From NCBI GenBank assembly GCA_973895155.1, contig OZ316893.1, positions 23,706,015 through 23,770,014 on the forward strand: 64,000 nt of DNA. Reading direction: 5' to 3'. Made by a program: the position numbers and the translations under genes. The stretch comes from Marsupella aquatica. Taxonomy: Eukaryota > Plantae > Marchantiophyta. The notes beneath the pieces were generated by a model, which saw only the letters and a program-made list of their open reading frames with translations, did not search any database and had not been told where the DNA came from. The number at the start of each line of letters is the position of its first letter. The first letter of the stretch is position 1. Shown here in pieces: positions 1-64,000 of the stretch.

Positions 1-135
1 CAGGCTTCTGGAGACTCCAATATAGTAAGCATATACTGAGAAGTTTTGCACGATTCTGTAAATAATCATTTATAGCTTGTCATTGGTGTACTACCATATT
101 TTAAAAATCTCACCAAAGACTGTAACTTTTGCAGA

Positions 136-16340: not shown

Positions 16341-16342
<2 letters not shown>

Positions 16343-16386
<44 letters not shown>
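16343..16386. repeat. (CT)n/(GA)n microsatellite upstream of ROP
   Basis: Directly visible. Replaced by a short TA run in the duplicate (~24543). Confidence 0.95.
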
Positions 16387-16388
<2 letters not shown>

Positions 16389-32400: not shown

Positions 32401-33770
32401 AATATATGAATGTTGCAACATTCTAGCTTTCGATCAGAGGGGGAAGGTTGGAAAGGATAATAATGGTGAAGATTGCACTGAACTTGAAACTGAATGTTCA
32501 GCATCAGATTCGGACATGCATGTTCAATCGGCCAATTCTTAAATCGATATGGTTGCGTTTACTCTAATGTTTGAAGAGGAAAGATAGTCTTAGAACCCTA
32601 AAATAGTAAGTGGAAAGTGGGGGAAAAAACCAACTCCTTGAAACATGATAACTTGCAAACGATGTGTCAGTAGGTGTGCCAGGTGACAATAGGGTTTCTA
32701 TATATGCTTGTGTGGTTTGTTTTCCTAGGTCATTTAGGTGACTCACTTACCATATCAATTGCTCTAGCTATTGCGTTGGGTTTGCTGCATGGTTAATTGT
32801 CTACTTCTATGTTAACTTTCCAGGGCCGGGCACTATGTTCTTCCTCATCCAACTATGTGAGATCATAGTAATGTAAGTTTACTCCCTGTGCACCTGTTTG
32901 ACCTTGTCGTAACTTCTTTTGGAGTTTGAAGATTTCTATTTAGTTGTTGCTTTGAGATCAAGGTCTACCATATATATATACCTCCTTTTACGTACATCCA
33001 CTTCTACTTCTACATACTTCCTTAATTGTACGTGCTCAATCTGCTGGGCCTCAGGTGCCATCGTCAGGCATTGCAGGTTGCTTTCCGCCAAATGGTCTGC
33101 AGCTCTTTCTCTGAAGGGTTCCATGAGGTGTTTTGATGAACTACTAGGACCAAATGTTCAGTGTATTTTTGGTAGACACAAGGAAGATCTGCAAGGTTAG
33201 GAGTTTGAAAGAGGGGAATATAGGGGGTAAGTAGGGAAATTAACCCCAACGTACCTCATGCTCCCCGCCCCCTTACTATTGGGGGTAATTTCCAGAAGAT
33301 GAGTTGGGAATTCATTCCCCTCTTATCAAAGCGATTCATGGTAAGGTATTTGTCCCATATTTAGTAGGGAACCAAATCTCCTTGTAGTGGACGGGCTGCT
33401 ATGCTTGTAAATTACCTATGTCCCTAGGGTAATCATTCGGTGTGTCTTGCAAGTGCATAACCTAAACCCTAAACACACACAAAAGAACACAAGAAAGAAT
33501 ACCAAAGAAACAGTGGACATGAGAAACAGTGGACATGATTCAAAGATGAAGTGTTCAATTCATAATGCTCCCGCAGGAGGCTCGAACAGGTACATATGTG
33601 GAAAGGAAAGACCCACTCAGGCTCTGTCCTCCTAGTCTCATCGTTGTCCCGCTGCACTAAAATCACAACGGGAGGAAACGAGAGTGGCACTGACAAGTAA
33701 ACGAACAGTAAGAGTGTCACTGCCTAACTGACTCAAGCACCGAAGAGAACCTTAGCTAAAACTCATCTAG

Positions 33771-36102
33771 CTACTCTGATGCATTGAACCTCTGCTGCCA
33801 ATTCTCTCCCAGTATGAACTCCAGATTTTGTTCCATGTTATCTTTTTTCCCGGTTGCACAGCCATACATGATGTCCCTGATCATCACTTGTTTTTTGTTC
33901 TGCACAAAACATGCAACATGCGTACAATTAGAGACCACATATATGGAATTTGTAATTCATCATTACTAGTGAGTGCGTGCAGGAATTGTTAGGCAAAGCA
34001 CGCGAACTGAAATACCCCAATAATACCCCATACACAGAGTGACTTTATTCACCTTGCAGTCCACGCAAGCACTTCTAATCTTACCTGCAGCTCCAAAATC
34101 TTCAACTCAATCGAATCTTCGGCGATAAACCTGACGACTTTCACCGACCTTGTTTGCCCTATACGATGTGACCGATCGACGGCCTGGTCCTCTACCGTGG
34201 GATTCCACCACCCGTCTACCATAAGAACATGTGTAGCCTCAGTGATGTTGAGTCCTGTTTTCGTTGCCATCAAGGACAAGAGGATAATGCTGATCTGCAT
34301 GAAATGAGTAGAAACAGTTTAATTAGAATATGAAGAGTTTACCCTTTGAACAAATACAAACACCGATCTGCACGGATAATGACGGTTGTACCTCTGGGGT
34401 CGTCTTGAAATCATTCAAGGCTTGTTCTCTGACATTGGAATTCATTCCTCCATCAATCCTTGTGAACTTTAGACCAGCCTTCAGAATGTGTGGCTCAAGC
34501 ATGTCGAGACATGAAGTCCATTGTGAGAAAACAAGAGCCTTCTGCCTGGGCACAAAGCTTTCGCTGCTGCCCTGTCCTGTAGTGTCCAGCGGAATCGACT
34601 TCAGGTATTCCAAGACTGCATCAAATTTTGGAGAAGGTGGGTGTCGGACATCATATTCTCTTCGCGCCTTCCCTTTTGACTCCGCACCACCATTCACTAG
34701 CCTCAAATCAGCTGGCCTGTATAGGACCTGGGCTGTCACGTATTTTGAACATTTTGCCGATTTGCAGGTTCCAGTTTCCCGGTCTATTGCACAAATGCCA
34801 CAGTATACATGGCCACAGCCAGAAATCTGAAATGGACTTCCAATCAAGCCCCCCTGCACAATCCAACCATTAAAGTGAGTGCATGCAGAAATTGTTAGGC
34901 AAAGCACGTTAACTGAAATACCTCAATCATACCCCAATAATACCCCAATCATACCCCATACACAGAGTGACTGTACTCACCTTGCAGTCCACGCAAGCAC
35001 TTCCAATCTTCAATTGCTGAAACTCTGACACGAGTCGGGCTCGTTGAGGCTCACTAAGGGGCGTTCTTTGCACTTTGTTCCCGATCTCCTCTTCGCGAAT
35101 TTTACATAAGGAAGGAAGTTTCGGGTGCACTGCAAATTGTCGCAACCGGAGCAGAACGCTCAACACATTCGATAAGGCACCTCTTTCGGCATCACGGAAT
35201 TCCTACAACATTACAGGCACATTAATTGCCATCGAACAGACACCTTCAAGGGATCAAATTGAACTCTCATACGTCTTCAACATTGGGGATTATTAAGAGC
35301 CTTACATACCTTGTATAACTCCTTACTCTTTTCCTCCTGATCAAAATAAGCGTTTCGTTCTTGTTGTGTTCTCCATTCAACAATTTGCACCTCGATCATC
35401 TTAGGGGGCAGTGGGAGTATGCCTGCATGTAAGCACAGTGGCAGGGTAAATGCACAATTGATAAAGAAATCAGGCTTGGGATTAAACAAAGTGAACTCTA
35501 CCATGATATATGCATGCACGCTTACTTTTGTCTCTCCTGAGCGCAATCGCAACCAAGTTTTTCGAGAGGATGCCATTCGCTATCTTTGGCCTTGTCTTCA
35601 GCAGCTTCTTTAACTGCGAGAATTCCTTCCACTCTCCTAAAGGATAATACCTCAGAAAACTGAAGTAAGGAAACAGATCAGAAGCCTCGTTCTGTATGGG
35701 TGTACCGCTTAGGCACCACCTCCTCTCTGCCTTGAGACAACGCGAGGCCTTGAAATTTTGACTAGTTTTATTTTTCATGACATGACACTCATCCAGGACT
35801 ACTCTAAGCCAACTAATCTTAAACAGTGGACCTGCAAGTCTAGGTTTTTTTACAGGTCTCTTCATACTCCCTTTTGGCACGCTGGACGTCTTTGGAGCAA
35901 TGGGAGACTCCCCTATCATGATTGAGTACGTAGTGACAACCACGTCATGGCTTGAAATAAAGTTGATGTCTTTATTCCTCTTGTTGTGGTAGAGGAGGAC
36001 CTTCACTTTTGCTATCTTGGAGGTCCTTGCAGCTATTTCTTGGCCCCATTGAATCACCACGCTGGCTGGACAAACAACTAGAGTTGGCCCCGGGGTCCTC
36101 AC
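33771..36102 (-). pseudogene. SNF2-family helicase, RAD5/RAD16-like with inserted RING: 3' exons (motifs Ia-VI)
   Basis: TLVVCPASV (Ia), DVVVTTYS, WLRVVLDECHVMKN (II), WCLSGTPIQN (III), LLRLRQFAVHP, RING-like CVDC...CGHVYCGIC, KALVFSQWTSCLD (IV), GLNITEA (V), EDQAVDRSHRIGQ (VI). GT-AG introns. Last exon 33900-33771. Confidence 0.9.
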
Positions 36103-36799
36103 TTATTTCCTTCCGACCCATCACGCGCAACTAAGTATAGGGTTTTTTAATTCGATTCCGCGGAAGACTTAAGAAGTTTTGTTGAAGAACTTTAGGGGTA
36201 TAAAAATAAATTGTGCAACTTAGAAGTTTGGTAGGGATGGGTAAAAACTCAATTCTTCAATATAAGTTGTACGTTTAAGATAGGGTATGCTGGGAAAGAA
36301 AATATACTAGTGACACGCGTCAACCTTTAATTGGTCCACGTGGCACTACCTTGCATAAGCATGGTTTAGGGGCAACATGTGGGTTTCATAGAGTTTTGAG
36401 GGGAAAACCCAGGGGAAAATTCAAATTGTTTGTGTGAGCGGGAGGTGGACAGGGAGGGGGGGAGAGCAAGGGTTAGGGTAGCCACTCGAGTGTCACTTAG
36501 GGCCGTCGATCCTGGCTAGAGCCGTTTGGGTGAAATCGTGGGGCCATACATTTGGTCGCTCGGGTCCATGGAAGGACCGATTCTTGTTATAGACTAGTTG
36601 TCGTAGCCGTCCAGCACCAAGTTTAGGGTAAAATTGGGCAGCCATCCATCCATCCATTTGTTGGGCCATCCATCGGCAGTTTGCGATGGCTGGTTAGGGA
36701 ACATTCGAATGCGCTTGTGAAGGAAACTTTTGCAGGGTGAGTTGGGGATCAGGGGCTGGGTGTTGCCTCGACACTTTTACAAAGGAAAAGCTTTGAAGC

Positions 36800-37335
36800 G
36801 GGGGCTGCGATGCAAGGATTGCAATGCTGATTGATGGATTGACTGAGGCGCTGCGCTGCTGCAATGTTGATCGATTGAGCCACTACTGATCGATTGAGGC
36901 TTGAGGTGTTGCACTACTGTGATTGAGGTGCTGTGATTGAGGCATGAGGTGTTGCGCTGCTGTGATTGAGGTGCTGCGATTGAGGCACGAGGTGCTGTGC
37001 TGCTGTGATTGAGGTGCTGCGATAGAGGCTTGAGGTGTTGCGCTACGATTGAGGCTTGATGAGGTGCTGCGCTGCAATTGAGGCTTGAGGTGCTGTGCTG
37101 AAATTGAGGCTGGAGGTGCTACGCTGTGACTGCTGTGGCGATTGTGGCTTGAGGTGTTGTGCTGCGATTGCTGCTATGATTGAGGCACTACGATTGAGGC
37201 GCTGATTGGGAAGGGTTGTGATTGGGGGAGAGTTTGGAAGGAGTTGCTGCTATGATTTGGCGAGGCTATTGATTGGGCAAGTTTGGACCGGGCATTGCTG
37301 CCTGCATTGCTGCCTACATTGTTGCCTACGTTGCT
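36800..37335. repeat. Degenerate short tandem repeats (gattgaggtgctgc; ttgctgcctrca)
   Basis: Directly visible. Confidence 0.8.
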
Positions 37336-38341
37336 GCCTCCATTGCTACTATCATACTGTGATTGGGTGTTCTGAGTTGCGAGCTGCATTGTGGGCTGCA
37401 ATAGAGAGTTCAAGGTGAACCAAGGCTGTGCACGAGTGCTCATTGTGAGCTGATCAAGCTTGGTTGGGTGTGCTTCATCTGCTACAGCTGCTTTTGGTGA
37501 AGTTCGATCTCTATCTCAATCTTGGTGCTTTCGAGTTGCAAGATAATTGTGTTGTAACTTTTTCCTTCGTTGTCTAGCTCCATTTGGACTTGTCAAGGTC
37601 TATCAAATCTGTTGTTTGTCGATCTATCTTTCAGCTTTAATTTAGTTGCTGCCTTTTCGCCCCACTTTAAAGCTTAAAAGCGGCTGCTGTCCAACAGGAA
37701 AGCTCATCGATCTCCAGCTTACTCCTGATAGAGTAGGCGTAGCACCTTTAGTCTATCAATGTAGTAGACTTATCTATGTGAACGATACCGAGGATCCAGT
37801 GTCAGCAGTCTTCAATCTTCAGTCAGCTTCTGTGTAGCTAGCAGTTGGGCAGCCAGGTCTCGCTTCATTGCTTCCTCTCGATGCTCACTAGCTCCATCCA
37901 TAGAAGTCCTTGGCAGAAGCATCCTCGGTTAGCAGCATGCACCCATCTTGGCTCTGTCTCTTCAGTTTCAAGTAGCTCCAATGTATCAACATAATGCCAA
38001 ATAATTACAGTAGACAGGCCCAATCAAATTATTATCAGTTATGTCAATTCAACTTATAAATATGCACATTGGATAAACCTCAGATCCTGCCTCAGTTGTC
38101 TTAGATTCTCGCTCAGATTAGAAATTTGTTGTTGTCGAAGTCACTTGAGGTTGGAGAACTTGTTGCTGGAGTTCAGTCTGCTGTCGAAGTCACTTGAGGC
38201 TGTCTACTAAGTCTCAAACAATGTTGAATACTGAGTACTCTTGGAAGCTTTGTAATGACTGCTCTGCTTATTAGTTTGTTTTATGAATGGTGAATTTGAT
38301 TTGCTGTTGTGATCCTGTGATTCTGACATTGTGTTGTGCAG

Positions 38342-39612
38342 TTTGTCAAAAAAGATTATAGTGCAGGTTCTCAAGGAGCTGTCTAAAGTCTATAAATTGG
38401 AACCAGTATTTGCCAAGGTATGCTAAATTCTAGTGAGCTCAGCTTGAATTTCATTCAGATTCTTCTTTTGTTTTTTATCTTATTGGATGTTTCATGGTAG
38501 AGGTTCAATTGCCTTTCCTCCTTTCTCTATTTAGTCTCCTATATATCTAAGCAAGTTTGTGCTCTACCAAGGACTCATTTCCACCAAGAATGAACTTGGT
38601 CGGAGGTTATCTCTTTGAAATCAGTCAGGTTTTTGATAAATTAGTACATGCTCTCAACTGTTCTTGCAGGATGGGTTGGTTTCCTGATTGGTTCAGGGCA
38701 TCGTGAAGGCATCTAAGAAGCTTCAGCAATATACCACAGTTCACATCCAAAAAGTTGTGAAAGGAGCAGACCTCAAACAACATTTGCTACATCTCTTGCT
38801 TGATAAGGCATTAAAGGTATGCTTATGTTAAGTATGTGTTGTTTGATCAATAACTACCAAGTTAATGTTGACTACAGAGGGGCTGAAAACGGATTCTAAG
38901 TGAATGTTCTGTTGTGCAGAGGTAAACTCACTATCTAGCAAGCTGAGATGGCTTCTGATGTGCCAAGGATTGATATATTTTCCCATAAGGAGCACCACCG
39001 CATGGATCCCCCTTGTTGTTTCTTTTGTGATGAGACAAATGATGTGGTATTTTGTGATGGGCCTTGTAGTAGACATTTTCACTTTGTTGGTGGAAAAGGT
39101 ATGCAGGGGCCCATTTGCACTCCTGTCACATTGCCAGAGAACAATGACTGGAGGGCACCTTGGGTTTGTCAATTGTGTGCTGCCGGCAGAGCTAGATGCT
39201 TTGCTTGTGGACTCATTGGAAGATTTGAACATCCCACTGCACAGGAATCTCTTGTGCTCCATTGTGCCCACCCGGATTGCTTTTCTCATTATCACCCTGG
39301 CTGCCTTAGGGTGTTACTTATGGTTGGGGCACTGCCTTAGAGGTCTCATCCAACCAATCCAAAAACCCTAATATGCCCAAGGCATTTTTGTGAGTACTGT
39401 AAAGTCTACAAGGATGGGATTAAGGACTTTGTACAGTGTCGCAGGTGCCCTCGAAGTTGGTGTCATGATGAGACCTCTGAGGGAGTGAAACACCTCAGGA
39501 GGTGTGTCAAGGGCAGGGACCATTGGGATGTGGAAGGGTGGCGTTTCATTTACTGTCATAGGCATGCAATATTTGAGGGCAACTTGGTCCCTATTCAGCC
39601 TCATACGTCTTA
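38342..39612 (+). pseudogene. EDM2-like / NSD-type composite PHD-finger gene (exons ~38342-38417, ~38670-38816, ~38920-39612), one in-frame stop
   Basis: CFFCDETNDVVFCDGPCSRHFH..WVCQLC..CFACG..CAHPDCFSHYHPGC, then reading through TAG 39338-39340: LICPRHFCEYC..VQCRRCPRSW..FIYCHRHAIFEGNLVPIQPH. This is colinear with the EDM2 PHD cassette as recalled. Confidence 0.75.
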
Positions 39613-39999
39613 GAGTTTGTGAAATTGATAGTACAAAGCAAACTTCTTCTTTTGGCTAATCACATGTGAACAATAACCAACAAGAATTGTTTGTGTTGGT
39701 CTTTAAATGTGGTTATGAAAAGGTTTTTTGAGCAGTCTCTAATTTGATTCATATTGTGTTGTTTACTGTGCTGGATGGCAGGTTCATTATGTATGGCAGG
39801 TTCAATATGTGTATGTGATTGTATTTAGAACCCTTGATGCTTTAACTTGAACGAATTGATTGCAATGGCTACCCAGTTTGTAAAACTATTGCACAAAAAA
39901 AGGGATGTGGTGACTGATGGGAAAGATGAAGAACCTATAGCTGTGTTGGCCTTCAAAGAAGGACAAACCTTAGCTGATTTTTGAAGTCAAATTCCTGAA

Positions 40000-42900
40000 T
40001 TGGTTGATTTTGATTTTGATTTCTGGGATTATAGGCTTCCTGGTCGCATGAAGGTCAACAGTGAGAAAATGACTGAGTTGTCTGAATTGGATGGGAAAGT
40101 TGCTGTCATTGAACAAATTGGATCCCTACCTTCTGCTAGGACAGGGTTCCCATCAGTTTCTGCTGCTGTCACCCAATTGGCTGCAGTGGACTCTTCCCAG
40201 GGTGAACAGCTTCAAGAAGCTCCCCCTGTGAGAGCTTCTTTTGAGTCTATTTTGATGTCTAAGGTGGCTATCAAAGTCTGGAATGATGAATTTACAAGAT
40301 TGGAGAAGTGGATTCACAAGAGTGGTTATAAAAATCATAATTGGAGAGTTCAAACATGGGATGAAGGACAGGATGTGTGAGGCCATCTGGAATGTCTTGA
40401 GTGTAGAGTGGTCTATGGGAGGGCAGATAATTCCCAAGATAAGAAGTCAATTGCTAATTTGTTCAGCAATTTTAAGACCAAGCACCTTGCCTTTGCTAAA
40501 CACAAAGACAATTACTGTAGGAGAAGGGGTATTGCTATGACTGGGGTGAAGTCCTCTGATCTTGCACAGAAGCTTGAGTTTGATTATGAGGGTGCCATAG
40601 CAACTGGCCTAGAGATAGTCCAGAATCTGAATGCTGAGTGTGGAGGTGATGATGAGTTATTTCATGTGCCCCCTGTGCCTGGTCCAGCCAATAATGCAAA
40701 CAAGTGGTTCCTTTATAAGGTTCGTTGCAAAGTCTGTGGGGCAATCATGGATTTGGTTTGTAAGAAAGGGACTTTGGATCACAACCTGAGGACACACTTG
40801 GTCAGTCGAGGTCACCTGGATGTAGTTGAAGCCAGAGAGAATACTGCTGAACTTGCATTGAGATCTGGAAAGAGGGGCAGACCAAGGAAGCCAGATGAGA
40901 GGGATCAACATCCTTCACATAATTCAATCTTAAAATTCTTCAAGGAGGATGCTTCCAATGCAAGCAGCAGCTCTGGCACAGGTGGGTCTAGAGACATTGA
41001 TGTGGGCTTAAGTTTGCTTTGTTGGGGAATATGGGATGAATATGTAGAGTGGAAGAATGTGAAGTATGCTGTGAAGGGTATCTTGCATGATCAGCAGGGA
41101 GGACATGTCTGGAATTTGGATGCTGCAATCTCTGTTCATGTCTACAATCCTAGCACAAATTCTACTGTACATATAGAAGGACTATTTAGGCATGAAGATT
41201 GTTGTAGGTTGTCCTTGTATGGTGGGGGTTTTCTGAACCTAACTTGCAGTAGATGTCATGCTATAACACTAGAAGATGACTTTCGTGGACGGGTGCACAG
41301 GGAAGCGGAGGCTTTAGCAAAGAGAGGGGAAAGAAGCACACAGGGTGGTTTGAATGCACGTTATTTGACACGTCCAGAGTTGAGTACACAAATGCGTCAC
41401 TTGAATGTCAAGAGAAGAAAGGAGAGATGGTTGTTGGCACTACAGACTCAGAAAGTGTGTGCCCTGAGTACTAGGAAGAGAAAATTGCAAGAATTGTTAG
41501 GAGTAGCTGCAGACAGAAAAGATTTGAGACTTTTTTTAAGGAGTATTGTCAATGGTCATAGGAATGGTGCATTTGGTGGAAAAGAAGGTCTTTGGGATTT
41601 CTTGAAGGATATAGGTAGAAATTTGGAGAGAAGTGCAAGGGGGTTTCGCTACAGTCAAAAAACAAAAGCCATTGCTCAGGCTATGTTTCAATATGGAGGC
41701 CGGCAGGTGGCACATGTTTTTGCAAGAAACTTATCTGGGCCAAGCCTGAAGACACTAAAACGAGACAGAGCAAAATTTGTGCAATTTTGTGCTGGGATTA
41801 GGCTAGAAACATTCAAGGAGGTGGCTCGAATTCTGTCTGCTACAAAGGAGATGTTGGGGATTGTAGGGGATGTGCCTGTCATGCTTGCAGAGGATGAAAC
41901 CAGGATCAAGGAAAGCCCACGGTAAGTCAATTACAGTAGCACATAATGATGTGATTGGAGTTTTAGGGTTTAGGACTATTTCTGATGCATGTAGTTTTGA
42001 ACCAATTCTTTGAATCTGACTTAGTTCTCATTGGGCTCTGTGCAGGTGGGAGGCCAAATATGACACTCTCATTGGTTTCTGTGGCCAGAAGGATGGGCAC
42101 ACCTGTGAATTTGGATTAGAAATTCTTGTAGGTGATGGTGAGGATGGCTATAACAAGATTGTTAATACATTTGAGGATTTTAACAAGGGCATGTATGCTA
42201 GAGTTGTCATTGTGAATCCATTGCATGTTGGAATGCCAAAGTTAGCCCTCTGTGCTATTTCAACATGTAACAAATTCAAGGCAGAATGGGTTCGGGAGCA
42301 TTGGGTGCAATTGAAGGAATCTTGGGATGTGCATTGCAGAGACTCTATAGGTCCTTTGCTTGGGCATGCTAGTGATGGTGATGCAAGACGCAGAAAATTG
42401 ATGTTGGAAGACTACAGAGGAGCAAATGGCACTTACCCTAGATTTTCTGTAGGGTGGGAAGGATGGCCTTACTCAGTTGCCATATTGCCTAATGGGGACC
42501 TCTATGGTTTTGGTGATCAAGACCAACCTCATAATGGGAAAAAGTTGATTAACCCACTAGATCGAGTGTCCTCAATAATGGCACTTGGAGACCAACATGC
42601 TTCTCTGTTTCATGTTTGTAATGTATACAATCATTATCCAATTCATCAACATGGATTGAATTGGGATGATGTGAACAGATCTGACCGTCAGAATTGGACT
42701 GGTCCTCAGAGGATAGCATCAGACAAGGTGCGTGAATGTTTAACAGATCTACATGCAAGAACTGATATGTTGTATGAACGAAGCTTGGGGACCGAGTTGT
42801 ATTTGCAAATCTGTGCAGATTATATTGACATTTTCTACTCCCAGAGACATGATCTGAGGACAAGAGTCAAACTGGCAGGCAAAGTTTCTTGGTTCTTTCG

Positions 42901-43459
42901 ACTGTGGAGGTTGTGGTTAAGGTATGGTGATCATGCTGTAGGTGGAAATGTTGCTTCACATACAGAGAAAAATATGATTTCAATCCAAGCTTTTCATGAT
43001 GTTAATATGTCTTGCCAATTCATTGTGTTGCTTGTATGTGCATTTCGTGATAAATTTTCTCACTTGTGTATTCCATTTCATGAGTTGGGTTCTGATTGTT
43101 GTGAGATCTTTTTCAGCAAGGTAGGTGGAATGAGTGGCCATGAGAGGAATAATGATTTTGGCTCTTTGTTGGATAGTGTTGTTGGGTTGAATCGTCTTGC
43201 TAGATTAGAATGTGGACCAGAGGGCTTGAAAGTAGCTCGATCACATAAGAAGCAAGATCATGTGTGGGCCAAGCTTCATCCTTTACTTGAAGGTGAAGAT
43301 GCACCTAATCTTTTTGATTACTCTGAAGTGCAAACTAATGAGTTGGTGGTTGCAGCCTTGAAAGAAGGATTTGAAGAAGCAAAAGAGTGCCTTAGAAGGT
43401 TGCAAATGTCTCCCCGAAGTGATCTGCCAGCATCAAGAAAAATTCCCTCGGATCCATAG
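40000..43459 (+). pseudogene. P-superfamily-like DDE transposase with N-terminal zinc fingers; intron 41922-42045; premature stop 40378-40380
   Basis: CLEC..HL..KH and CKVC..HL...H fingers, AT-hook-like KRGRPRK. Catalytic-type motifs AEDET, HASDGD, DQPHNGKK (DxxH), DRQNW and SDCCEIFFS. Splicing restores SPR|WEAKYDTLIGFCG. Confidence 0.8.
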
Positions 43460-43514
43460 TCATGGTAGTGGTTTAAGTAGGTACAGGGGATAGGTTAGGG
43501 GAATAGGTTAGGGG

Positions 43515-43574
43515 GTGGCATATTTGGATACTTGAGCTTCTTGCTCAATCAGGGGTTCAATTCCCCTTTGCCAC
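43515..43574 (+). other. tRNA-like fold lacking a full D-arm
   Basis: Acceptor-like gtggca/tgccac; stem ttgag/ctcaa with 7-nt loop cttcttg; T-arm agggg-ttcaatt-cccct. Confidence 0.4.
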
Positions 43575-44026
43575 ATACACTCATTTAGATTGTTAACTCA
43601 ATTTCCTTTTGGTGCACCTCCCTTTCACATGAGACAAGCATAGGAGATTTCAAATATGAACAACTCATATTGTATATTGCTGAAGCTTCTACTAGAATTG
43701 AGATTCTTAGTGGAAGCATCAACACTATATACTATAAGTTTTTTATGATGAGACATCATGGATGCCAAAGGAGCATAGGAGGGTTTGACTAAGACTCGAA
43801 TAATCTTGACAAACACTCAAAAAAGGTGCGCATTTGAAAGAACTTTTCTTTTCTTAGTAAGGTATGTTTAAATGAAGGCAAAACTTTACTTAACCTTTTT
43901 TAGGGGTCAAATTTTAAGGATTTGGAATTCTTCTAAGTATGATAAGGAGGGAGAAAAAAATATTTTACTTAATAAGTTAGGGTCACAAGGGACCAAAACG
44001 TCGAGGGTGGTATGGGGACCTCTGTA

Positions 44027-53149: not shown

Positions 53150-53615
53150 TTTGGTGCACATGATGTGAACATTTAATTTGTGGAAGTGACCCGCACCCCC
53201 ACCCACCCTGAGCTACCTCCATACTTCATCCTTAAATTAATAACCTTCCACATATGCATGCATGCATATATGTGCGCAAGTCTTAGGGTTTAGGGTTTAG
53301 AGTTAGGGTAATGAATAAAAGGCCCCTTACTTCGATCATTTGCACATGATGTGAACATTTAATTTGTGGAAGTGACCCGCACCCCCACCCACCTTGAGCT
53401 ACCTCCATACTTCATCCTTAAATTAATTAACCTTCCACATATGCATGCATGCATATATGTACGTGCGCAAGTCTTAGGGTTTAGGGTTAGGGTAATGCAT
53501 AAAAGGCCCCTTACTTCGATCATTTGCACATGATGTGAACATTTAATGGGTGGAAGTGACCCCCACCCCCACCCACCCTGAGCTACCTCCATGTTTCATC
53601 CTTAAATTAATTAAT
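53150..53615. repeat. ~185-bp tandem repeat (about 2.5 units) containing telomere-like tagggtttagggtt
   Basis: tgcacatgatgtgaacatttaat...gaagtgaccc..acccccacccacc recurs at ~53155, ~53341 and ~53525. Confidence 0.88.
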
Positions 53616-54597: not shown

Positions 54598-55302
54598 ATG
54601 GCCACACTTAAAGATGTCGTTGGCTGCTGCAATGCTGGAGAAACGAGGACCTTCCCATTGATGAGGGTTTTTGTGGTCAATTTTGATGCTCCAATCGATT
54701 TTCCGCGGAAGTTTCTATACCATGGATGCACTCGCTTCGTGACACCTGGGTGGATGTGTAATCGCACTGTTGAAGGGTCAAGTCGATGTCCCCATAATTC
54801 GGTTGCTGCTGGGACCTGGACAGAAAGGTATCGTTTTGAGGTGTTCCTGGTTGACTCTACTATCGGGCCACACTTCCCTCCAGTGCGAGCTAAGATTTTT
54901 GATGCAGCGACTGATCTCATAGGGATGCCTCCGCAGGATTTTAGCGAGAAGGAAGACTTTGTCCAGTTTGCTACTGTCCATAGAGCTACAGCAAAGATGG
55001 AATGTGTGGACGTAGTGATCCGCTGCAAAGACGGTGAGGCCATTATTAATTCCTTGTCACCTGTAAGCAATGACGACTGTGAGATCTTGCATTCTGTGGT
55101 GCCTACTTCTGTCACTCCACGGAAGACAAAGTTGAAGACCTACAGTGTACCTTCAAGTTATCATACTGCACGAGGGAGGCATACAGCAGAATCTTCAAGA
55201 TCATCTATTAATGCTTCAGACCCGGCCACAGCGTCGCAGCTTAGTTCTGTTAGATGTAGATTGCAGGACCTGCTTGATAGTTTGGATGCAACTCATATCT
55301 GA
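54598..55302 (+). CDS. RPA1 (RPA70) C-terminal-like OB-fold/zinc-ribbon protein
   Basis: FLYHGC..CNRTV..RCPH..RYRFEVFLVDST..AKIFDAATDLIG matches the RPA1 DBD-C pattern Y.AC..C.KKV..C..RY.L...D.TG...F..A..L.G. Intact ORF; ATG follows a ttttcag acceptor. Confidence 0.75.
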   Translation: MATLKDVVGCCNAGETRTFPLMRVFVVNFDAPIDFPRKFLYHGCTRFVTPGWMCNRTVEGSSRCPHNSVAAGTWTERYRFEVFLVDSTIGPHFPPVRAKIFDAATDLIGMPPQDFSEKEDFVQFATVHRATAKMECVDVVIRCKDGEAIINSLSPVSNDDCEILHSVVPTSVTPRKTKLKTYSVPSSYHTARGRHTAESSRSSINASDPATASQLSSVRCRLQDLLDSLDATHI

Positions 55303-56449
55303 TGTGACCAGATGCAAGCACAACGTACGATGGTTTGGCATTTTGGGCAGGAGTCTTTTAGTTTGTAAGGTTCCTACAGGCCATGCAATGACCTGCCATT
55401 TTGGTTTGATATGGCATAACGTGTATGCTTGGTTTGTGGGGCAAGTGGGACCAAAATGTATGTATGTGAATGGTCGACTTATTTTCAATGTGCAATAAAG
55501 GGGGGCTCGGACCTGCATCTGTTAAATGAAGGTTGTGATGTCCACGATGCGTTTGTTAAAATGTACCAGAAAGTAATTGGGTGTTAATTGGCTGGTGTTT
55601 AATCGATGAATGGGTCTCGGCAATTTTTCATTTTGCAATTTGTGCGCAATTTCTCAAGGAAAACTTCCAACTTCAAACTCTGATACAGGACAGCAAGTAG
55701 AACTCAGCCACTATAGCGCTTTTGCGGATCGCAGCGACATCATGTAGTGGGTCATCATAGTTCACGGAGAATTGGGTAAGGGCCCCTCCCCAATCTCCGG
55801 ACATCAACAGACCAAAAAAACAGAGAAACACCTGAAACTCATTGGGCGGATCCGCGGCTCCATCGATCCCAACGACCAGGAAGGGAAACAAAACACAAGC
55901 ATACAGACAACCATAAAAACAATGTGACCCCAAACAATACATTTATGGCAGATGTGTTCTTGTTCCAGTAGGTGTTCATTATATTTATGGAGAATTGATG
56001 GGTAATGTATGTAAATGAATAATGGAGTTCGCACTTTGAAGGCCGGGGCAACGCCTGCAACTCAATGAAGAAGTAAGTAATCATGAAAAAATAGACGACA
56101 ACTTCCATATGCGTAAAATAGGTCGTAAAATTATCTTTTGCGACAACTTACCACTGCATACCGGTTGGCAAGGGGGGGTGGACAGCATACTGGCAACCCG
56201 GTTACCTGACAAGGCAACCCGAGCGGTTGCCACAAAACAGGCATCGGCCTCGGACGATGCCACAACACCTTTGTCAGCATGGCGCTCATGATGTATATTG
56301 CTTCAATTGTAATCTCAAAGACTCAAAAAGTGTGGTCTATTCTAAATATCCGAGTTCATTCTCATACTAACCTTGTAACATTAGTGTTGGAACGAGCATA
56401 ACCACAAATACCCCAAACATACCCCTCACATACCTCACACATACCTCGC

Positions 56450-57350
56450 ACTGGCAGAACAAACTACGTCACATTCGCTTCTTCACTTCCTCTGATATTA
56501 ATGCTCTACCTGCTGCGTAGCCTGCAAAACATTCCACATACCATATATAATTAATGATGCATGTTGCATGAAAATAGATCGCGGAGTCTGTATCATTGAA
56601 CATCCAGATTCATACCTGTTCCATCGATCAGAGCGCACCAGACACGAAGAAGATATATGGTTTAGTTGGTTTCTAAGGATCGGTGTACAGGGGGTGGCTG
56701 GCCAGCCTTGGGATCGGTGAAATCGATGACGAGTTTCAAGGATGCGTAAATGGTACTGTAGGATATTTACTAGTAAGCCCGGGCTAAGGAAGAAGTGGGT
56801 GGTAAAGGGTTAGGTAAGATCTGCTTTCACTTTGAAGTATACGAGAACCCTGTATTTGACCTGCGAGCACATTTCAAACTCAAATCATAAGCAAAAACTA
56901 TTGCAATCAAAAGAATTGACTCTGAGTGCTGCCAATAATTTCTACCAAATCCAAAACACATTACAGGATATCGCACAAGGTGGCATGGGATTTGACAGAG
57001 AATTCTCCCACGTAGTACGAAGATCTGCAGGTGGCCTGTGGACTTCCACGTTTTGGATGATGTTATCGGGCGCGAACATGTAAAACTTATTCTGAAGTTG
57101 TCTGAGCTCGCATAGAGGAGGATCGAACACTTAGAGTGGGAGGTGTGAGCTACGGTCAATGACCTCCACTCTTTAGTACCTTTGGAATCGTTCCCGCGGA
57201 AACGATCCCTCTGAAACTGGAGGGAAACTAAGGCCAGCCTTATCTTCTTGGTATCCTATGTAGGGTATTTGCCACATAGGCTTCTGATTGATCAGAAGGT
57301 CATCGCAGCTGGCGGCTTTACTTTCCCGAAGTGCAGGCTGCGCTAGTCTC
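56450..57350 (-). pseudogene. Possible additional degenerate gene of unknown product
   Basis: Long frame PALRESKAASCDDLLINQKPMWQIPY...FDPPLCELRQLQNKFYMFAPD, interrupted by isolated stops. Splice-like sites at ~56617 and ~56523. Confidence 0.3.
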
Positions 57351-57993
57351 CATGGGAATAGTTTGTATATTGTCCTAACTTGTCATAGTAATCCAAACTG
57401 TGTGGACTTTTGAGTTAGGCCTAGAATAGTAGAGTGAGGGAAAATTTCCCAGCAGTATAATCATGACCGCAACTCCTAAATCCCCGGCCTAAATCGGCTG
57501 GATAGAAACAAAATCAGCGATGCGGTTGATGCAATGGACTGCGGATATATCGCATTTTGAAGAGTGACATTATTAATTTGGACCAGGGCGGTCAGTTCAA
57601 AACTGACGAGGACCAGCTTTGAGGTGGGCAACGCATGCACTACTTGCCTTGCAGCCTTTACCTCGAACACGCGCGGGCGGGCGATTCAAACGGATGATGA
57701 ACCCGCAGCCTTTACCTTCAACACGCGCGGGCGGGCAATTCAAACGAACGATGAACGAGAGAGGCAGTGAGTGCGCTTGGTGTAATACTCCCTTTTCGTT
57801 TTAAGTCCCCCTCTGTATTTCACTATTTCTGCTACGCATACGCCTGGAGTGAAGTCGATCTTTAGAGTGAAGTCGATCTTCAAAGTTTCCTACACTTGAT
57901 CGACGTTGATTGAAACAGAGTTGCAATGCATGAATGGAGCAGGCTTACGTGTAAGGAATTGTTGAAAACATTGATCGATGTTTAGAATCGACA

Positions 57994-60900
57994 ATGTACA
58001 CTCCCAAAATTGAGGAGTTGGATCTTACTGGGGAAAGCTTCTTCTGTATGGATGAGGATGATTGGCAACTTTTCTTTGACAGTGTGGGGATGAAGACATG
58101 GGTGCACAGGAAGAAGTTGAGGAGATGGGTGAATGAATGCAACGGGAGCAGCAATACCGGAGTCACACAGCCATCACAGCTACAGCCATCACCGCTGCAG
58201 CCATCACCGTTGCCGCCAATGAAGACACTATCTGAACGTGATACGAATCAAAAGGAGAGCTCTGGTGAAGAAGAGCACAAGTCTATCAGGCCTGCTAAAA
58301 ATACCCGCGCTCCTGATGCGCCGGAGAGAGAGACGTCTATGATTGGTTCTACCAAGCATCATCAAGTAAGTTGTTTGTCTCCCGTGACATTAAATTAGCC
58401 TATTGAAATCCATTGCGACCACGGCAAGGACCTCTTCTGATAATCACGCGAAGGCATCTAATGCAGTGCTCAATGGTAGTTTCTTTGTTTGATTGAATAC
58501 ACGCTGATGTGTGTTTCGACGCTGCTGTGCACAGTTCTATCCTTCGGTAGAGGACATCTTCAATGTGACCAACAAATCTGGAGGACGGTCCATTCTGGCT
58601 TCTAAGCATGTAGAAGCGCACCAAGCTCACAAGGCAAATTACAGAACGGTGAGGAATTGGTTTGCAAATTTCGCCGCCGACAAGGAGATATACGAATACC
58701 TCAGTGCAGATTTCAAGTCTGACACAAAGACAAAAGAGAATTGTCGATTGTATGTTCAGAGTAGAATGCACGAACTTTCACCTCTCAAATTTGAGTGTCC
58801 AGAAACCGGATCTAAACATGAGATGCCTTGGCCAGAAAGCTTCCTGTTTGAGGTCGTCAAGAACAGAAAGCATGAATGGAGGAAAGCAAATGCAAAAATC
58901 AAGGAAGGTACGTACTGACAGATTCCCATTCATTAGTTAGCGCAGTGCCATTGATTTTGGCAATGAACTGTGTTCTATCTTTCGCAACTTGGAAATAACC
59001 TGGAAATACCCTGGAATTAACCTCAAGTACTTGCACTGAATTTCATTGCAGGTGCCATCCCTACGGCCCGAAAAAAGGAGCCGACTGATTTTGCAGATAT
59101 GAAGGTAGAACCAGATGCAGATGAAGCGATTGCCATTGGACATGGACAATCATACCCAGAGATTTTTGTGGAACTTCGTGCGTATGCATTCAAGGTGACC
59201 TAAGTGGTAGAACTGCAAATGAGAGACGCCGATAAGTCTGTAAGGTATAGGGGGCAGTACAGTGGAGAGGTTGTTGGTCATGGAATACCAGAGAGCGTCC
59301 ATGTTATTAAGAAAGTGAGATGGTGGAAGATTAAGTTCATGAAGGCCTTGTCTGATGGTAATCCGTCATTGCTGGCGCCTTACTGGGTGCCATTAATGAC
59401 ACCTTCAAAGGGTCTGTAGATGGTACAGTTTGGGCACTTAAAACCAGTAAGTATGGTGCCATATACATATATAAATATATGCATTTACCAACCCTAGGTT
59501 CATTGCATCGGAATGAATCTGCTTCTCTGGGTTCTGCAGGTTTTTTCATGTTGCCCAGTCGATATGTATCGAGAGGTAGAGATGTTGAATGAATGTGGTT
59601 TTCTACAATATATTTATATTGCAAGATTCCCTGGCACTCATGCACCGTCACTATTGATGTGCATGTACATATTGCAGGACATGTCCATTTTTGTTCCGAG
59701 AGCATATTGTTCCATGAGTCCCAATCTGGCTCATAAAGTATGCCAATCGTATTCAGGTCCCTCTCCTCAGGGTTCTGCTGTCTCAGGAAAGACCTCCAAG
59801 AGAGCGGGGTTACCGGAGATAGGTCCCTCTCCTGAGGGTTCTGCTGTCTCAGGAAAGGCCTCCAATGGAGCGGGGTTACCAGAGATGCCTGACGTTGAGG
59901 AAAACCCTCTTTCAAAACCAAAGAAGCGAGTGTTGGCATTAGCTGGGCCATGAAGAAGATGCAGAGGGAGGGGCGGAAGTAGAGCATAGAGAGGAAAGCA
60001 AAGCAGATGATGCGGTCAGGTCCAACGATGGAGAGCCAAGCGAGGATACTAAAGTACTAGATACCACTACATGCAGCCAGGAGAAAACATCGTCAACATC
60101 AACTATCAACTTGCAAGTTGATTGCTTCACTACATCCACCCAACTTTACATTGAATCTGACGAGGATGATGAAGACACTAATATAAGGCCTAACGATCAA
60201 CCGGAACCGGAGGTACGAGTATTTTGTCATCCTAGTTGCGTTCTTATATATCATACGTACGTAATTATAATTAAGACACCGAGTTTGCTTTATACTTATT
60301 TTTCAGGTAAAAAGACAAAAGATTAAGAGCAGTCCTGCAGGGGGAAACAACCCGCTACTGTCCAAGGTATATATCATATATCATTGTATGTATAAGTTTT
60401 GTATATTGCAATTATTATAATGGCCTAAAAGTTCTATTGTAAGTGATGTATATGACTTTGCAATTCATTCTACTTTGAGCCTAGGTTCACCAATATATAC
60501 AATGATTTGCACATCCACATATGCATGGCAGGTTAAGACCGAGAAGGAACAAGGTGGAGTCCTTGCAAGCATTCGGGACCTAAATCAACCATTGAGTAGA
60601 GCACGAAGAGGCAAGGGTCCGAACCCAGGCAAAGAGGTCTATTGCAAGATTGAGGACTACCATTTTTCTCCTTTTTTCTCCACAAAAAGGATTCAAGTCC
60701 TTGCCATTTTGCATTGAATGTGCCATATATCCCTTGATGGCTAGGATTAAGTAGTTGAGATTGAAAGGTTAGATCTTGCATGCCAAGTCTTTTGGAAGTG
60801 TGTCCACACTTTTTGAAAGTCCTTACCTCTTGGAAGTGTGCCCAACATTTGTGGAAGTGTGTCATGAAGCCTTTTTTATCTAAGATGTGCTAATCTTGGC

Positions 60901-61705
60901 CGTTGGCAGTCCTTGGATTAATTAAAAGGACTGGAGACTTTTTGCCTCCTTTGGTAGTCCTCAATCATGCAATCCACCAAGAAAACGTACCTTCATTTAG
61001 AGCTATTTCAACAAAGGTACAGGAGGATGCAAGGGAACGGTTGTTGACCGGCAAAAACATGGTATGATTTCTTATTTCCATCCATTGTAAGCCAGCAGTC
61101 TTTATTAGGTTGCAGCGATCATTGTGTACAATGTGTAGACAGAAATTGTATGTGTGGAACGTACTTTTGTGGTCTCATTATGTGGTCATTATATATGTAC
61201 AGGCAAACCAAGAAGAAGTTTTGTGTGCTCAAGGAACCCGGTCGACGAGAAGTAACAAGTCCCAGGCTTCTGGAGACTCCAATATAGTAAGCATATACTG
61301 AGAAGTTTTGCACGATTCTGTAAATAATCATTTATAGCTTGTCATTGGTGTACTACCATATTTTAAAAAGCTCACCAAAGACTGTAACTTTTGCAGAATT
61401 TTGAAAAGCTCACCAAAGACGCCAAACTAGTATTGTGCATGAGAGCCATGGGTTTGATGAAGACCTGCGAAGTGGAGGCCAAATTGCGCACGTTTGTAGC
61501 AGATACGAACAAGCGGTCAAAGACTACCCCCAAGCCATTCACCAAACACGCGCAGAAGAATGCATCAGAGTTATTGGACATGGTGGCCAGGTGGATTGTA
61601 GAGCAGAATGTAGTGATCGTTACACATCTTCCGGCTTTAAATGCCGATGGCCAACAAAGGATCTTCCCTGAAAATGCTATGAAGAAAGCCGGGGAAGAGG
61701 TATAG
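57994..61705 (+). pseudogene. Multi-exon accessory (TnpA-like) gene with an N-terminal SAM-like domain; interrupted by a MITE and stops
   Basis: IEELDLTGESFFCMDEDDW..VGMKTWVHRKKLRRWV resembles a SAM domain. Chain of AG/GT-bounded exons (~58533, 59052, 59541, 59677, 60308, 60532, 61203, 61397). Stops at 59201, 59417 and 59951. Confidence 0.65.
60636..60978. mobile_element. MITE, 343 bp, GGT...ACC termini, 4-bp TSD AAGA; same family as 1022-1390, opposite orientation
   Basis: TIR ggtctattgcaagattgaggactacc / ggtagtcctcaatcatgcaatccacc. aaga on both sides. Shares the internal gagattgaaaggttagatc..gcatgccaa and ggaagtgtg repeats. Removing it restores the exon NPGKE|NVPSF. Confidence 0.9.
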
Positions 61706-61858
61706 TGCTCACTACATAGATAGCATACCTGCATCGCTCTATGAACGGCACAAGCTAGACAGGTTATGAATATGATTGCATTATATATTGACCAAGGGCC
61801 ACCACTACTTGCTTCGTGTTTCACATATATATATACATATATATTCATATATATATAC

Positions 61859-61889
<31 letters not shown>

Positions 61890-62119
61890 TGGGAGTTGCT
61901 AACGTACTTAGTTTCTAATGTACAAATGAATGCTACTTAACTCACTGTGATCTTATTTACAACGCTATGAGGAAATGATTCAAAACCATATTAGAAATTT
62001 GATTTGCGTAAGCTGGGCCCAATAAAGAACCTTACATTCACGATACCCATCGACATTTCATGGTATTCATTGGCAATATGACTGGATGGTTTTTGATGCA
62101 ATTCATCTTGGGACGCCAG

Positions 62120-62960
62120 ACATTTTTAATACCCCATTGGTAATACGTGAGGATCCCCCAATACCCCACAATACATAGGCGTTACATCATGAATCCCCAC
62201 TTCATCGTAGGCAATTTGGACGATGCGGATGCACATTATCTTGGAATTTGATGATGCGGATGCAATTTGAGGCAGCAAGAAGCCTGGAATCAAAAATACC
62301 CTACAAATACCCCACGGTATGCAGGTAAAATGCACAAGTAATCCCCGCTTCGACATAGGAAATCTGGACGGTGAAGATGCATATCATCCTGCAAACCTCC
62401 AAGGCTGTTAGCGAAGCCACCTGGAGAGTGGCAATTGGAAGTGGCATACCAAATACCCCAACGATACCCCAGGGTATGCGGGTAATGTGCACACAGAACC
62501 CTCACTTTACAACAGGAAATTTGGATGGTGGAGATGCATATCATCCTACACACCTCCAGGGCTGCCAGTGAGGCCACCTGGAGAGCGGCCATTGGACGCT
62601 GACAACCCAAATACCCCAGAGATACACTAATGTATGCGGGTAATATGCACACGGAATCCCCACTTAGCCACAGCAAAGTTGGACGGTGGAGATGCATATC
62701 ATCCTGCGCACCTCCAGGGCTGCCAGCGAAGCCACTTGGAGAGCGGCAATTGGACGCTGACATCCCAAATACCCCAGCGATACCCCACGGGTATGCGGGT
62801 AATATGCGCACGGAATCCCCACTTTACCACAGCAAAATTGGATGGTGGAGATGACTATCATCCTACACACCTCAGCGAAGCCACTTGGAGAGCGGCAATT
62901 GGACGTTGACATCCCAAATACCCCAGCGATACCCCACGGTATGCGGGTATTATGCACACG
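62120..62960. repeat. 158-bp subterminal tandem array of the giant element (more diverged units on the left)
   Basis: Same unit as 1391-3825. Confidence 0.9.
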
Positions 62961-64000
62961 GATGTTGCGGAGAGCGCGACCATCCAAGGACCTGGATTAT
63001 GCCAACTGCCTCCGGCTTATACAAATAAACACGCAAATGTGGGGAAATGCGGAGGCGCTAAACCCTTCTGTAGTTGGGTATATTACGGGAAACGCCCCAA
63101 ATGTCACGCCTGTGGGACACATAGGCAAATTACCCCAGGGAAACGTCAAACTGCTAGAAGTATCAAATCCCTCGTTATGTATGGGAAAGCATGGGTATTT
63201 TCAACCAAATTCCCTAAGATGTCCGGAATCCCCACTTCTTTGTTATGGTACACTGATTCACCAAGTCAGGTGGGGAAATCCCCAACTCCTCGACCATGCA
63301 TATCCTCCTTGTGAGATCTCTTGTAATCAAGTACTTAGGTTATATGATATTCTAGTCATAAAGTTGTCATATCAGTGCTTTCTATATTGCAACAGGGTGT
63401 CAATTCCTCCAAAACTTAATTTATCATTGATTGTATTCATTAAAATTTAGATTGTTAATATGAGTTTAATTGTGTGTAATTCTGGAATTTGCAAACGTGT
63501 GTGGGTACAGTTAAGTTCAGAACGTAACTAAGGTGCGTGCAATTTGGAAGCATTATTTTACTTGATTTCAATTAAGAAGTGGTACAACCATATGCCCGCG
63601 CGTGGCCCATCCCCGGGCCCATCCCCCAGAAAGTTTGAATGCATTACACTGATTCACCTGTGCTCTTCTGAAAAGCCCGCTAAGATTAATTTCCCAATAT
63701 TTGGCTTTTCAAAAGCTTAACCCTAAACCCTTGTGCAAACAGTTTAAGCTCACCATAACATTAAGCTGGGTTTTTTCATCCAAAACGAACCAAATAAGTC
63801 AAATATTACTTCCATCGAAACTGTACGAGTTGTGTATATATGCTACTAGCTATAGTCATTGCGTACAGTGAAGAAGTAAGTCGATAGTCTTGGCTGTGAA
63901 GCCGGGTATTAAGCCTCTTTATCATACTTAGGAGTCTTGAATCAACTTGAAATCCTTTTGGTTATGTAAGGAAGTCTATCGTGCTTATTGAGCAACCAGA

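Follow-up and report, generated by a model that had tools for sequence, protein, structure and literature searches.

A multi-copy giant EnSpm/CMC transposon in Marsupella aquatica carries an SNF2-RING gene and phased ATACCC arrays that may help it to evade silencing

The means by which transposons counter host silencing are understood in few plant systems, notably VANC and TnpA, both from flowering plants. The excerpted description of VANC gives a pattern in which introns, spacers and ends hold dense motifs of one orientation (PMC5735166), and a structural link of VANC to MAIN/PMD is outlined in partly available reports (PMC13547354; 10.1101/2024.09.27.615353). Giant elements are known from red algae; according to the available extracts, the giant Plavaka elements (EnSpm superfamily) of Bostrychia moritziana are 17.4-19.1 kb long and carry PAG1-3 (10.1101/2025.02.11.637652), while En/Spm elements of Chondrus are 16-20 kb long with 4-5 ORFs (PMC6431247). 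Since published EnSpm-group elements already include giants that carry chromatin accessory genes, the element described here is of a known kind; its gene set is new.

The window (the whole 64,000-nucleotide stretch of the liverwort Marsupella aquatica that was analysed; contig OZ316893.1, assembly GCA_973895155.1) contains a multi-copy EnSpm/CMC cut-and-paste transposon of about 22 kb with five native genes. These encode a transposase, an SNF2-RING ATPase, an RPA-C-like OB-fold protein, a SAM-like protein (unconfirmed) and ORF2. The initial annotation had counted at least four genes inside the span; its transposase, SNF2 and OB genes stand, its SAM-domain protein does not have confirmation, and it had missed ORF2 as the fifth gene. 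At the left end, AGA is followed by CACAAGGAAGATCTGCAAGGT, which starts at 33177; at the right end, ATATCCTCCTTGTG stops at 63313 and is followed by AGA. The imperfect TIRs at 33177-33197 (plus strand, CACAAGG...) and 63293-63313 (minus strand) match at 18 of 21 positions, as previously annotated. The 3-bp target-site duplication at 33174-33176 and 63314-63316, likewise upheld, is read as AGA/AGA at one site, that of the window copy. The 5'-CAC..GTG-3' ends are those of EnSpm/CACTA (CMC/CMCT) elements, and a TIR pattern covering both ends has two matches in the window (0.02 expected), which are exactly these ends.

Contig depth in two studies jumps about 8-20-fold at both termini and is high across all native genes. 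In single contigs of run X4, depth is 13.2, 14.4 and 18.6 in the flanks and 165-265 in element pieces (SNF2, ORF2, transposase, spacers and the SAM-like gene); in run X3, the flanks have 34.5-39.6 and the element 331-458. The transposase, SNF2, OB and SAM-like genes have even depth and are carried together, as read from the depth of separate contigs. These even values and the sharp steps at the termini bear out the earlier proposal of a giant, multi-copy, cargo-carrying CMC lineage. It is hardly credible that the span is not one element, with a chance TIR/TSD pair enclosing piled-up unrelated repeats or a segmental duplication. Such an explanation would suit the fact that no single contig spans the element, that no empty site occurs among the contig matches listed (runs X4 and X3), and that the window has another, weaker TIR-like pair (16/21, with a 3-bp match). 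However, a high-depth contig begins precisely at 33177, a different flank is joined at precisely 63313 in run X3 (so that copies have different flanks), depth is even between these points, and the span is marked throughout by one motif that marks nothing else.

The 30-kb span consists of a 21.8-kb EnSpm/CMC element into which a P-like transposon (7.96 kb) and a MITE (347 bp) are nested; the native length of 21,828 bp agrees with the approximately 22 kb first estimated. The MITE-like insertion (60632-60978) is skipped by majority contigs in both X4 and X3 (joint 60631 to 60979). The P-superfamily-like transposon (36088-44042, plus strand) is also non-native, as a majority contig of run X4 skips it (joint 36080 to 44043, depth 265). 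P-superfamily elements have TIRs and 7-8-bp target-site duplications; here the ends show a direct repeat of 10 bp, which shortens to 7 bp when the inverted ends, short and imperfect, are aligned with each other. Its putative P-element-type transposase (39985-43456, plus strand) is assigned by a single line of evidence, ESM (0.94 to P transposase clusters, 191 shared features, 10/10 best family matches in agreement); it has no match in Pfam or PDB sequence searches. An NSD-type PHD-finger coding stretch (38939-39610, plus strand; Pfam PHD_NSD, E=7.5e-7) lies inside this insert and is therefore ruled out as native cargo. If this was the histone reader attributed to the element, the attribution fails, as it is the sole PHD gene.

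A survey of 1007 plant genomes used a 12-kb length limit (PMC12973397). Since the Marsupella element exceeds this limit, such elements probably escape full counting, and their genes are probably mistaken in annotations for SNF2 or RPA genes of the host.

The transposase gene (47247-51312, minus strand) has two introns and the motifs WDGFQ, GDHPAQC..CxxC, DxMH and FER. Its assignment to the EnSpm type holds: Transposase_21 (PF02992) is matched at 34.5 bits against a curated cut-off of 28.6 (E=1.6e-8), and the domain is present in 13 of 22 transposase homologs. The nearest relatives are from a liverwort and a fern; related transposases occur at loci of Riccia, Adiantum and Calypogeia. A DDE triad with a C(2)C motif is present; D14 (WDGFQ) and D120 (GDHPAQC) are invariant in 16 aligned sequences, CRNC is present and the FER glutamate is seen. 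The catalytic E is preceded by HVAGxGE...RHGPH, with a spacing that gives no clear fit to the H(3-4)H motif. DUF4218 and DUF4216 match no transposase exon in Pfam; both match another element in the window. Membership of Plavaka was rejected, as Pfam scans gave no match to the Plavaka transposase family and the ends are unlike TGT/CATCA. The tail is BAH-like by eye only, with no Pfam match to BAH. Transposase patterns in viral contigs were confirmed in 0 of 20 stretches.

The window copy is decayed. Where its transposase has four premature stops, the majority contigs have sense codons, and majority copies appear, from their sequence, to keep an open transposase. The SAM-like gene is frameshifted relative to majority contigs. 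Differences between the window and majority copies in run X4 comprise 94 A>G/T>C against 18 C>T/G>A, which is consistent with methylation-driven decay, that is, with host silencing pressure. A partial second copy of the right arm (1-4166, plus strand) is 91-92% identical and has two insertions of its own. The initial annotation took it as a recurrence of the right end and as a sign of a multi-copy family; the multi-copy state is sound, given the depth and the different flanks, but this copy is a truncated end, as the final 10 nt of its TIR are missing and it continues into a DUF4218 frame of another CACTA element. For the same reasons it is excluded as an intact second end.

Phased copies of a short motif run through the non-coding DNA of the element. 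All 17 exact matches to ATACCC-N5-ATACCC (11-bp phased) in the window lie inside two family copies, on one strand, where none is expected; the motif was chosen post hoc, and the count includes duplicated sites in two introns and tandem copies at the right end. With one mismatch allowed, 24 of 25 lie in family copies. AAATACCC occurs in 9 separate clusters; in 60 shuffles, no 8-mer of similar G+C exceeded 8. The doublets are located in introns of the SNF2 gene (34012-34028 and 34918-34956), the transposase gene (49951-49989) and the SAM-like gene, in a spacer between the OB and SAM-like genes (56408-56435) and, for the most part, in the right subterminal array, a 158-bp tandem repeat of 4.2 copies with one phased doublet per unit (62296-62962); those with coordinates are on the plus strand. 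Since the doublets keep to one strand in introns, spacer and right array, their arrangement tracks DNA orientation and not transcript direction. A further tandem array, of 184 bp and 2.5 copies, lies in the spacer between divergent genes (53155-53614, plus strand). A possible sixth gene at 56500-57260 gave no match in Pfam scans.

CHR27/28 are the closest characterised relatives of the SNF2 gene and, in the available part of their description, promote silencing (PMC4260354). The gene (33771-44424, minus strand) belongs to the RAD5/16 group, has about seven exons and is split by the nested P-like element; Pfam, homologs and GT/AG borders support it. An SNF2-RING helicase had been annotated; SNF2 and Helicase_C are matched in Pfam, whereas for the RING all 8 ligands are visible by eye and the Pfam E-value is only 0.055. 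Motifs I, II, III and VI (DDQGMGKT, DECH, SGTPIQN and QAVDRSHRIGQ, by eye) are intact. A quick tree, built from one exon and 77 matches without a RAD5/RAD16 outgroup, sets the protein apart on a long branch, outside the CHR27/28 groups of the land plants sampled; because of this design, orthology to CHR27/28 is not claimed. Two of the introns are duplicates of each other (79% alike), both with ATACCC arrays.

CACTA elements pick up gene fragments and extra domains (PMC8978399, in part), and fungal TET/JBP genes are said, in an excerpt, to pass 'frequently but passively' from one transposon lineage to another (PMC12730594). Passive capture from the host, as in Pack-CACTA elements, might thus also account for the SNF2 and OB genes, which would then be of no help to the element. 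This is quite unlikely: the SNF2 gene is complete, it has 37-51% identity to the 77 homologs found, the family motif lies within its introns, and depth places it in most copies. The long branch, together with the intact catalytic motifs, argues against recent capture.

ORF2 (44441-46500, minus strand) encodes a conserved domain of about 240 aa, an acidic tract and a predicted coiled coil, and has a frameshift and a stop in the window copy, where about 65 N-terminal residues of the domain lie out of frame. Its structure was modelled at pLDDT 79.7. A fold search of 48,161 chains gave VANC21 as the best match (rmsd 4.2, 154/180 residues aligned) with a Z of 4.0 and the next match at 2.5; this is below the level that the comparison tool calls meaningful, and a typical best chance Z is 7-8. 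Foldseek found nothing in PDB or BFVD, a PDB profile search found only coiled coils, no Pfam family was consistent, and DUF1985 or PMD occurred in 0 of 20 alignment members.

A predicted in-frame splice from ORF2 to SNF2 is possible, joining 44516 to 44424 across GT..AG borders. A bolder reading is that a giant EnSpm lineage of bryophytes and ferns makes one spliced protein, in which a sequence-specific DNA-binding domain of VANC/PMD fold and an active SNF2-RING ATPase would form a self-targeting remodeler that recognises the ATACCC arrays (11-bp phased) within the element that encodes it. This is considered unlikely; if true, VANC-type anti-silencing would not be confined to eudicot Mutators. 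The 15 ORF2 relatives found are all 87-479 aa long and have no SNF2 part, though most were called as single exons from short contigs. At one related locus, transposase similarity is absent from the 1.2 kb upstream of ORF2. ORF2 patterns in metagenomes were confirmed in 1 of 85 stretches, a 1.9-kb locus too short to show a gene set.

The OB-fold gene (54598-55302, plus strand) is a single exon with Cys/His zinc-ribbon residues. Its annotated likeness to RPA1 is borne out for the C-terminal domain (Rep_fac-A_C) by ESM features (0.91-0.96), but Pfam and PDB sequence searches gave no match. The SAM-like gene (57926-61705, plus strand) is a candidate counterpart of TnpA, with a SAM-like N-terminus, an HTH-like exon and more exons without a family. 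Its SAM domain has no Pfam match, and the sole PDB match is an EF-SAM protein (E=1.1); the AF2 single-sequence model has a pLDDT of 52, and its Foldseek matches are meaningless. One exon matches HTH_48 weakly in Pfam (E=0.075). Among longer proteins, 0 of 36 candidate homologs of the HTH-like exon passed, and there is no TnpA family match.

These genes might instead serve the mechanics of transposition. Here, the TnpA-like SAM/HTH protein would pair the ends through the arrays, the RAD5/16-type translocase would clear nucleosomes at the ends or target, and the OB protein would aid gap repair after excision. RAD5 is the best eukaryotic PDB sequence match of the SNF2 exon (E=1.3e-14), the OB gene is RPA-C-like, the right subterminal array holds most doublets, and Spm transposition requires TnpA, as stated in an extract (10.64898/2026.08.24.746577). 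This explanation is possible but rather unlikely: introns and a spacer deep inside the element also hold arrays; no 12-mer is common to the left subterminal region and the right one, where the 158-bp array lies; and the VANC21-like fold match is left unexplained. In addition, a lone RPA-C-like domain is without the main ssDNA-binding domains of RPA1.

The preferred reading, held at about an even chance, is that the element protects itself from silencing through its own phased ATACCC arrays, a self-encoded DNA-binding protein and the SNF2 motor. A phased motif that runs through introns and spacers, combined with SNF2 cargo, makes it likely that the element uses its own DNA-binding proteins and motor against silencing. 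The arrays would be bound by the product of ORF2 (with a weakly VANC21-like fold, then a coiled coil), of the SAM/HTH-like gene, or both; nucleosomes at bound sites would be shifted by the SNF2 ATPase, which may form a single protein with ORF2 through splicing. The OB protein would be accessory, and transposition would be ordinary DDE cut-and-paste with a 3-bp duplication. An anti-silencing role had been suggested for the cargo, as had targeting and repair of excision sites; the VANC21-like fold and the family-specific arrays give the first of these circumstantial support, and sequence-targeted anti-silencing is the likely mechanism, although dense motif arrays also fit ordinary TnpA binding for transposition. 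The family is an anti-silencing candidate from another lineage and superfamily, and as its motif is named and both a candidate binder and a chromatin motor are at hand, the idea is directly testable.

Like the red-algal giants, as far as their excerpted descriptions go, the Marsupella element combines an EnSpm-group transposase, a length of about 20 kb, several accessory genes with chromatin-related domains, and tandem arrays, which in red algae are proposed binding sites. The cargo differs: methylase/SET and ParB/2OG-oxygenase genes in red algae, and SNF2-RING, RPA-C-like OB, SAM/HTH-like and VANC-like genes here. Unlike red-algal Plavaka, its transposase matches Transposase_21 and not the Plavaka family. 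With angiosperm Spm/CACTA (TnpD plus TnpA), as available in extract, it shares CAC..GTG ends, a 3-bp duplication, Transposase_21, clustered short motifs and accessory genes (10.64898/2026.08.24.746577; PMC8978399). It differs in its CACAA rather than CACTA/CACTG ends, unmatched DUF4218/DUF4216 and TnpA families, roughly twice the usual length, five genes and additional internal arrays.

Fungal EnSpm/Plavaka elements that carry TET/JBP are also of the CMCT clade, and their accessory gene is likewise proposed to act against methylation silencing; in the part of the source used, their EnSpm families have CAC..GTG ends and 3-bp duplications (PMC12730594). They differ in cargo and kingdom, and PlavakaA/B end in TGT and CATCA. 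VANDAL elements are Mutator-like and described from eudicots, whereas the Marsupella element has Transposase_21, and its fold match to VANC21 is weak, with no sequence similarity. The SNF2 gene is a further difference, as the excerpted VANDAL description mentions none. As in Arabidopsis VANDAL/VANC, however, the Marsupella element has dense, same-orientation, family-specific arrays in the non-coding DNA of introns, spacers and ends, and an accessory protein with VANC21 as the nearest match of its predicted fold, which is followed by a coiled coil (PMC5735166, in part).

The element at 33177-63313 is real and largely as described in the initial annotation; a fifth gene and a motif system are added to it, and its PHD fingers are reassigned to a nested P-like insert. 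Its ends, target-site duplication, transposase domain and mobility place it in EnSpm/CMC. The left terminus reads AGA|CACAAGGAAGATCTGCAAGGT at 33177; the right terminus is an inverted match to the left terminal inverted repeat (TIR), ends at 63313 and is followed by AGA. Left and right TIRs pair at 18 of 21 bases, and both the imperfect TIRs and the 3-bp AGA duplication are thus found as first reported. In the window, a pattern for both ends matches only at the two termini (0.02 matches expected); among 21 CAC..GTG pairs with at least 16 matches, a 3-bp duplication is found in two, and the element's pair is the better.

The right end had also been said to recur at 1-4166. The arm there shares 91-92% identity with the element's right arm, but the end is incomplete, lacking the final 10 nt of the TIR, and the copy continues into the DUF4218 frame of a canonical CACTA. 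Canonical CACTA TnpD pieces (DUF4218, DUF4216) at 4166-4669 and 10922-11371 are joined to this truncated copy, and a further insert separates them; the window thus contains EnSpm transposases of two kinds.

Other features lie elsewhere in the window. An element at 6746-10841 has direct repeats of 764 bp (97.8% identical) as its borders; its minus-strand ORFs (8065-9894, 7527-7907) are transposase-like by eye (DGMDQ motif) and have no Pfam match. Two intronless copies, ROP/RAC GTPase-like by eye (15068-16935, 23278-25112), sit in a duplicated 1.9-kb unit (91% identical) that is possibly a mobile retrocopy. An intronless RING-H2 gene (26182-27132, minus strand; E=3.3e-12) has an acidic 90-bp repeat as its N-terminus. 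In the left flank, 29003-31715 holds high-copy repeats at which contigs end sharply (29003, 30695 and 30805), together with an inverted pair at 29229/31705.

Public contigs from four of seven listed sequencing runs (two studies) were compared with the window; one of the runs may share its source with the window. In run X4, unique flank contigs have depths of 13.2, 14.4 and 18.6; one contig, at depth 248, starts exactly at 33177, the internal pieces listed have depths of 165-265 across SNF2, ORF2, transposase, spacers and SAM-like gene, and the right flank contig overlaps the element by merely 30 bases. Run X3 has its flanks at 34.5-39.6 and internal pieces at 331-458, and in it another flank is attached behind exactly 63313. 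Contig depth, a rough copy measure only, is about 8-20-fold higher in the element than in its flanks in X3 and X4, which agrees with the proposed multi-copy family. None of the contigs compared spans the whole element; co-carriage of its genes is inferred from the even depth across them. That the span is not a single element is very improbable; that the extra genes are passive cargo is improbable.

In one majority contig, from the high-depth contigs of the family, 36080 is followed directly by 44043 (depth 265; among the matches listed, in X4 alone), and contigs of both X3 and X4 join 60631 to 60979. Without the two inserts, the native element measures 21,828 bp, close to the ~22 kb first estimated. 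The larger insert, a P-superfamily-like transposon at 36088-44042 (7.96 kb) whose ends show a direct repeat of 7-10 bp, carries NSD-type PHD fingers (E=7.5e-7) upstream of a P-element-type transposase (ESM 0.94). Since the PHD stretch lies in this insert, which the majority contig skips, the 'histone reader' is ruled out as native cargo. CG is strongly depleted in the P-like element (o/e 0.18). The high summed contig depth at 39-43.6 kb points to many related families; P was screened for, yet is outside the seven active superfamilies in a 1007-plant-genome survey (PMC12973397). Two small related inserts at 60632-60978 and about 1022-1390, each with internal repeats of 21 bp and inverted ends of 13-20 bp, occupy different positions in the two family copies.

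The transposase (51312-47247, minus strand) matches Transposase_21 above cut-off, as expected of the EnSpm type claimed; DUF4218, DUF4216 and Plavaka have no Pfam match in it. The 22 homologs found share 39-55% identity with it; the 21 with a named source come from Riccia sorocarpa and Adiantum nelumboides, so a non-seed land plant is the likely host. Across 16 aligned sequences, the two catalytic aspartates do not vary. This copy has four stops (51087, 49144, 48306, 48053) where majority contigs have sense codons, and its differences from those contigs are mostly C/G losses (94 vs 18 in X4); it is a decayed copy of a family whose transposase is apparently open.

The SNF2+RING helicase is upheld as a SNF2-RING-HELICc gene (44424-33771) with GT/AG borders and motifs intact by eye. 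Its 77 homologs are mostly annotated CHR27/28-like (37-51% identity); in a quick tree it forms a branch of length 4.2 outside the CHR27/28-like groups. The top scorers against it form a fast-evolving Brassicaceae clade of short CHR27/28-like proteins (P0023-P0029, P0036, P0063, P0065, P0066, P0096, P0098). The nearest characterised relatives promote silencing (PMC4260354), so homology does not give the direction of its effect. For the single-exon OB-fold gene (54598-55302), the RPA1-like assignment agrees with the nearest clusters, of Rep_fac-A_C type (ESM 0.91-0.96); Pfam and PDB searches give no match. The multi-exon gene from 57926 opens with a SAM-like stretch and includes an HTH-like exon; one extra base at 57962 in majority contigs brings the SAM-like stretch into frame. 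Its SAM domain is unconfirmed, the sole PDB match being an EF-SAM protein (E=1.1) and the AF2 model poor.

The gene overlooked initially, ORF2 (about 46500-44441), has 15 relatives among 1.84 billion representatives; of ten looked up, the two with a named source are both from Calypogeia fissa. The best match of its structure model (pLDDT 79.7) among 48,161 chains is VANC21, VANDAL21's sequence-specific anti-silencing protein (rmsd 4.2, 154 of 180 residues); its Z of 4.0 is within chance range by the tool's own calibration, and the second-ranked match has Z 2.5. Foldseek, Pfam and profile searches add no support for fold or family. The modelled likeness is treated as a lead on mechanism because most of the domain is covered and a transposon protein is named. 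With predicted borders (phase-0 donor 44516, acceptor 44424), ORF2 could be spliced in frame onto SNF2 across an intron of 91 nt; the SNF2 part is absent from all ORF2 relatives found.

The doublet ATACCC-N5-ATACCC, in 11-bp phase, was picked after inspection of the sequence and occurs 17 times in the window (0 expected), always on the plus strand and always within the two family copies, 10 times in one and 7 in the other, which also hold 24 of 25 one-mismatch doublets. It lies in introns of the SNF2, transposase and SAM genes, in a spacer and in every unit of the right 158-bp array; the nested P-like element has none. As a check by shuffling, the clusters of AAATACCC were counted: there are 9 separate ones, and 8-mers of similar G+C reach at most 8 in 60 shuffles. 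An SNF2 exon end with its motif-bearing intron is duplicated into the last SNF2 intron (33968-34082 / 34874-35010, 79% identical), which could be one route for the spread of the arrays.

The element thus belongs to CMC, is present in many copies, and has five genes and motif arrays specific to its family. There is about an even chance that an element-encoded binder recognises the ATACCC arrays and that the SNF2 motor would open chromatin there, countering silencing. VANC21 targets are dense same-orientation motifs found at the ends as well as in introns and spacers (PMC5735166); TnpA targets are clustered motifs at termini (10.64898/2026.08.24.746577). It is less probable that the extra genes instead help to pair the ends, to reach the target or to repair excision sites.

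The five-gene set is not reported in the full-text literature searched; related families may be present in Repbase, Dfam or bioRxiv supplements, such as that of the TnpA preprint with its 962 Spm proteins. In the supplement to the 1007-genome survey, limited to elements of 2-12 kb, SNF2 and Rep_fac do not occur, Helicase_C occurs once (a Carex CACTA) and DUF1985 has two rows, both MULE (PMC12973397). VANC is structurally like MAIN/PMD and described as dicot-specific (PMC13547354, 10.1101/2024.09.27.615353). The element belongs neither to the angiosperm TnpD+TnpA type nor to Plavaka. Published giant elements of the EnSpm group that carry chromatin accessory genes come from Chondrus (16-20 kb; PMC6431247) and Bostrychia (17-19 kb; 10.1101/2025.02.11.637652), and fungal EnSpm-group families carry TET (PMC12730594).
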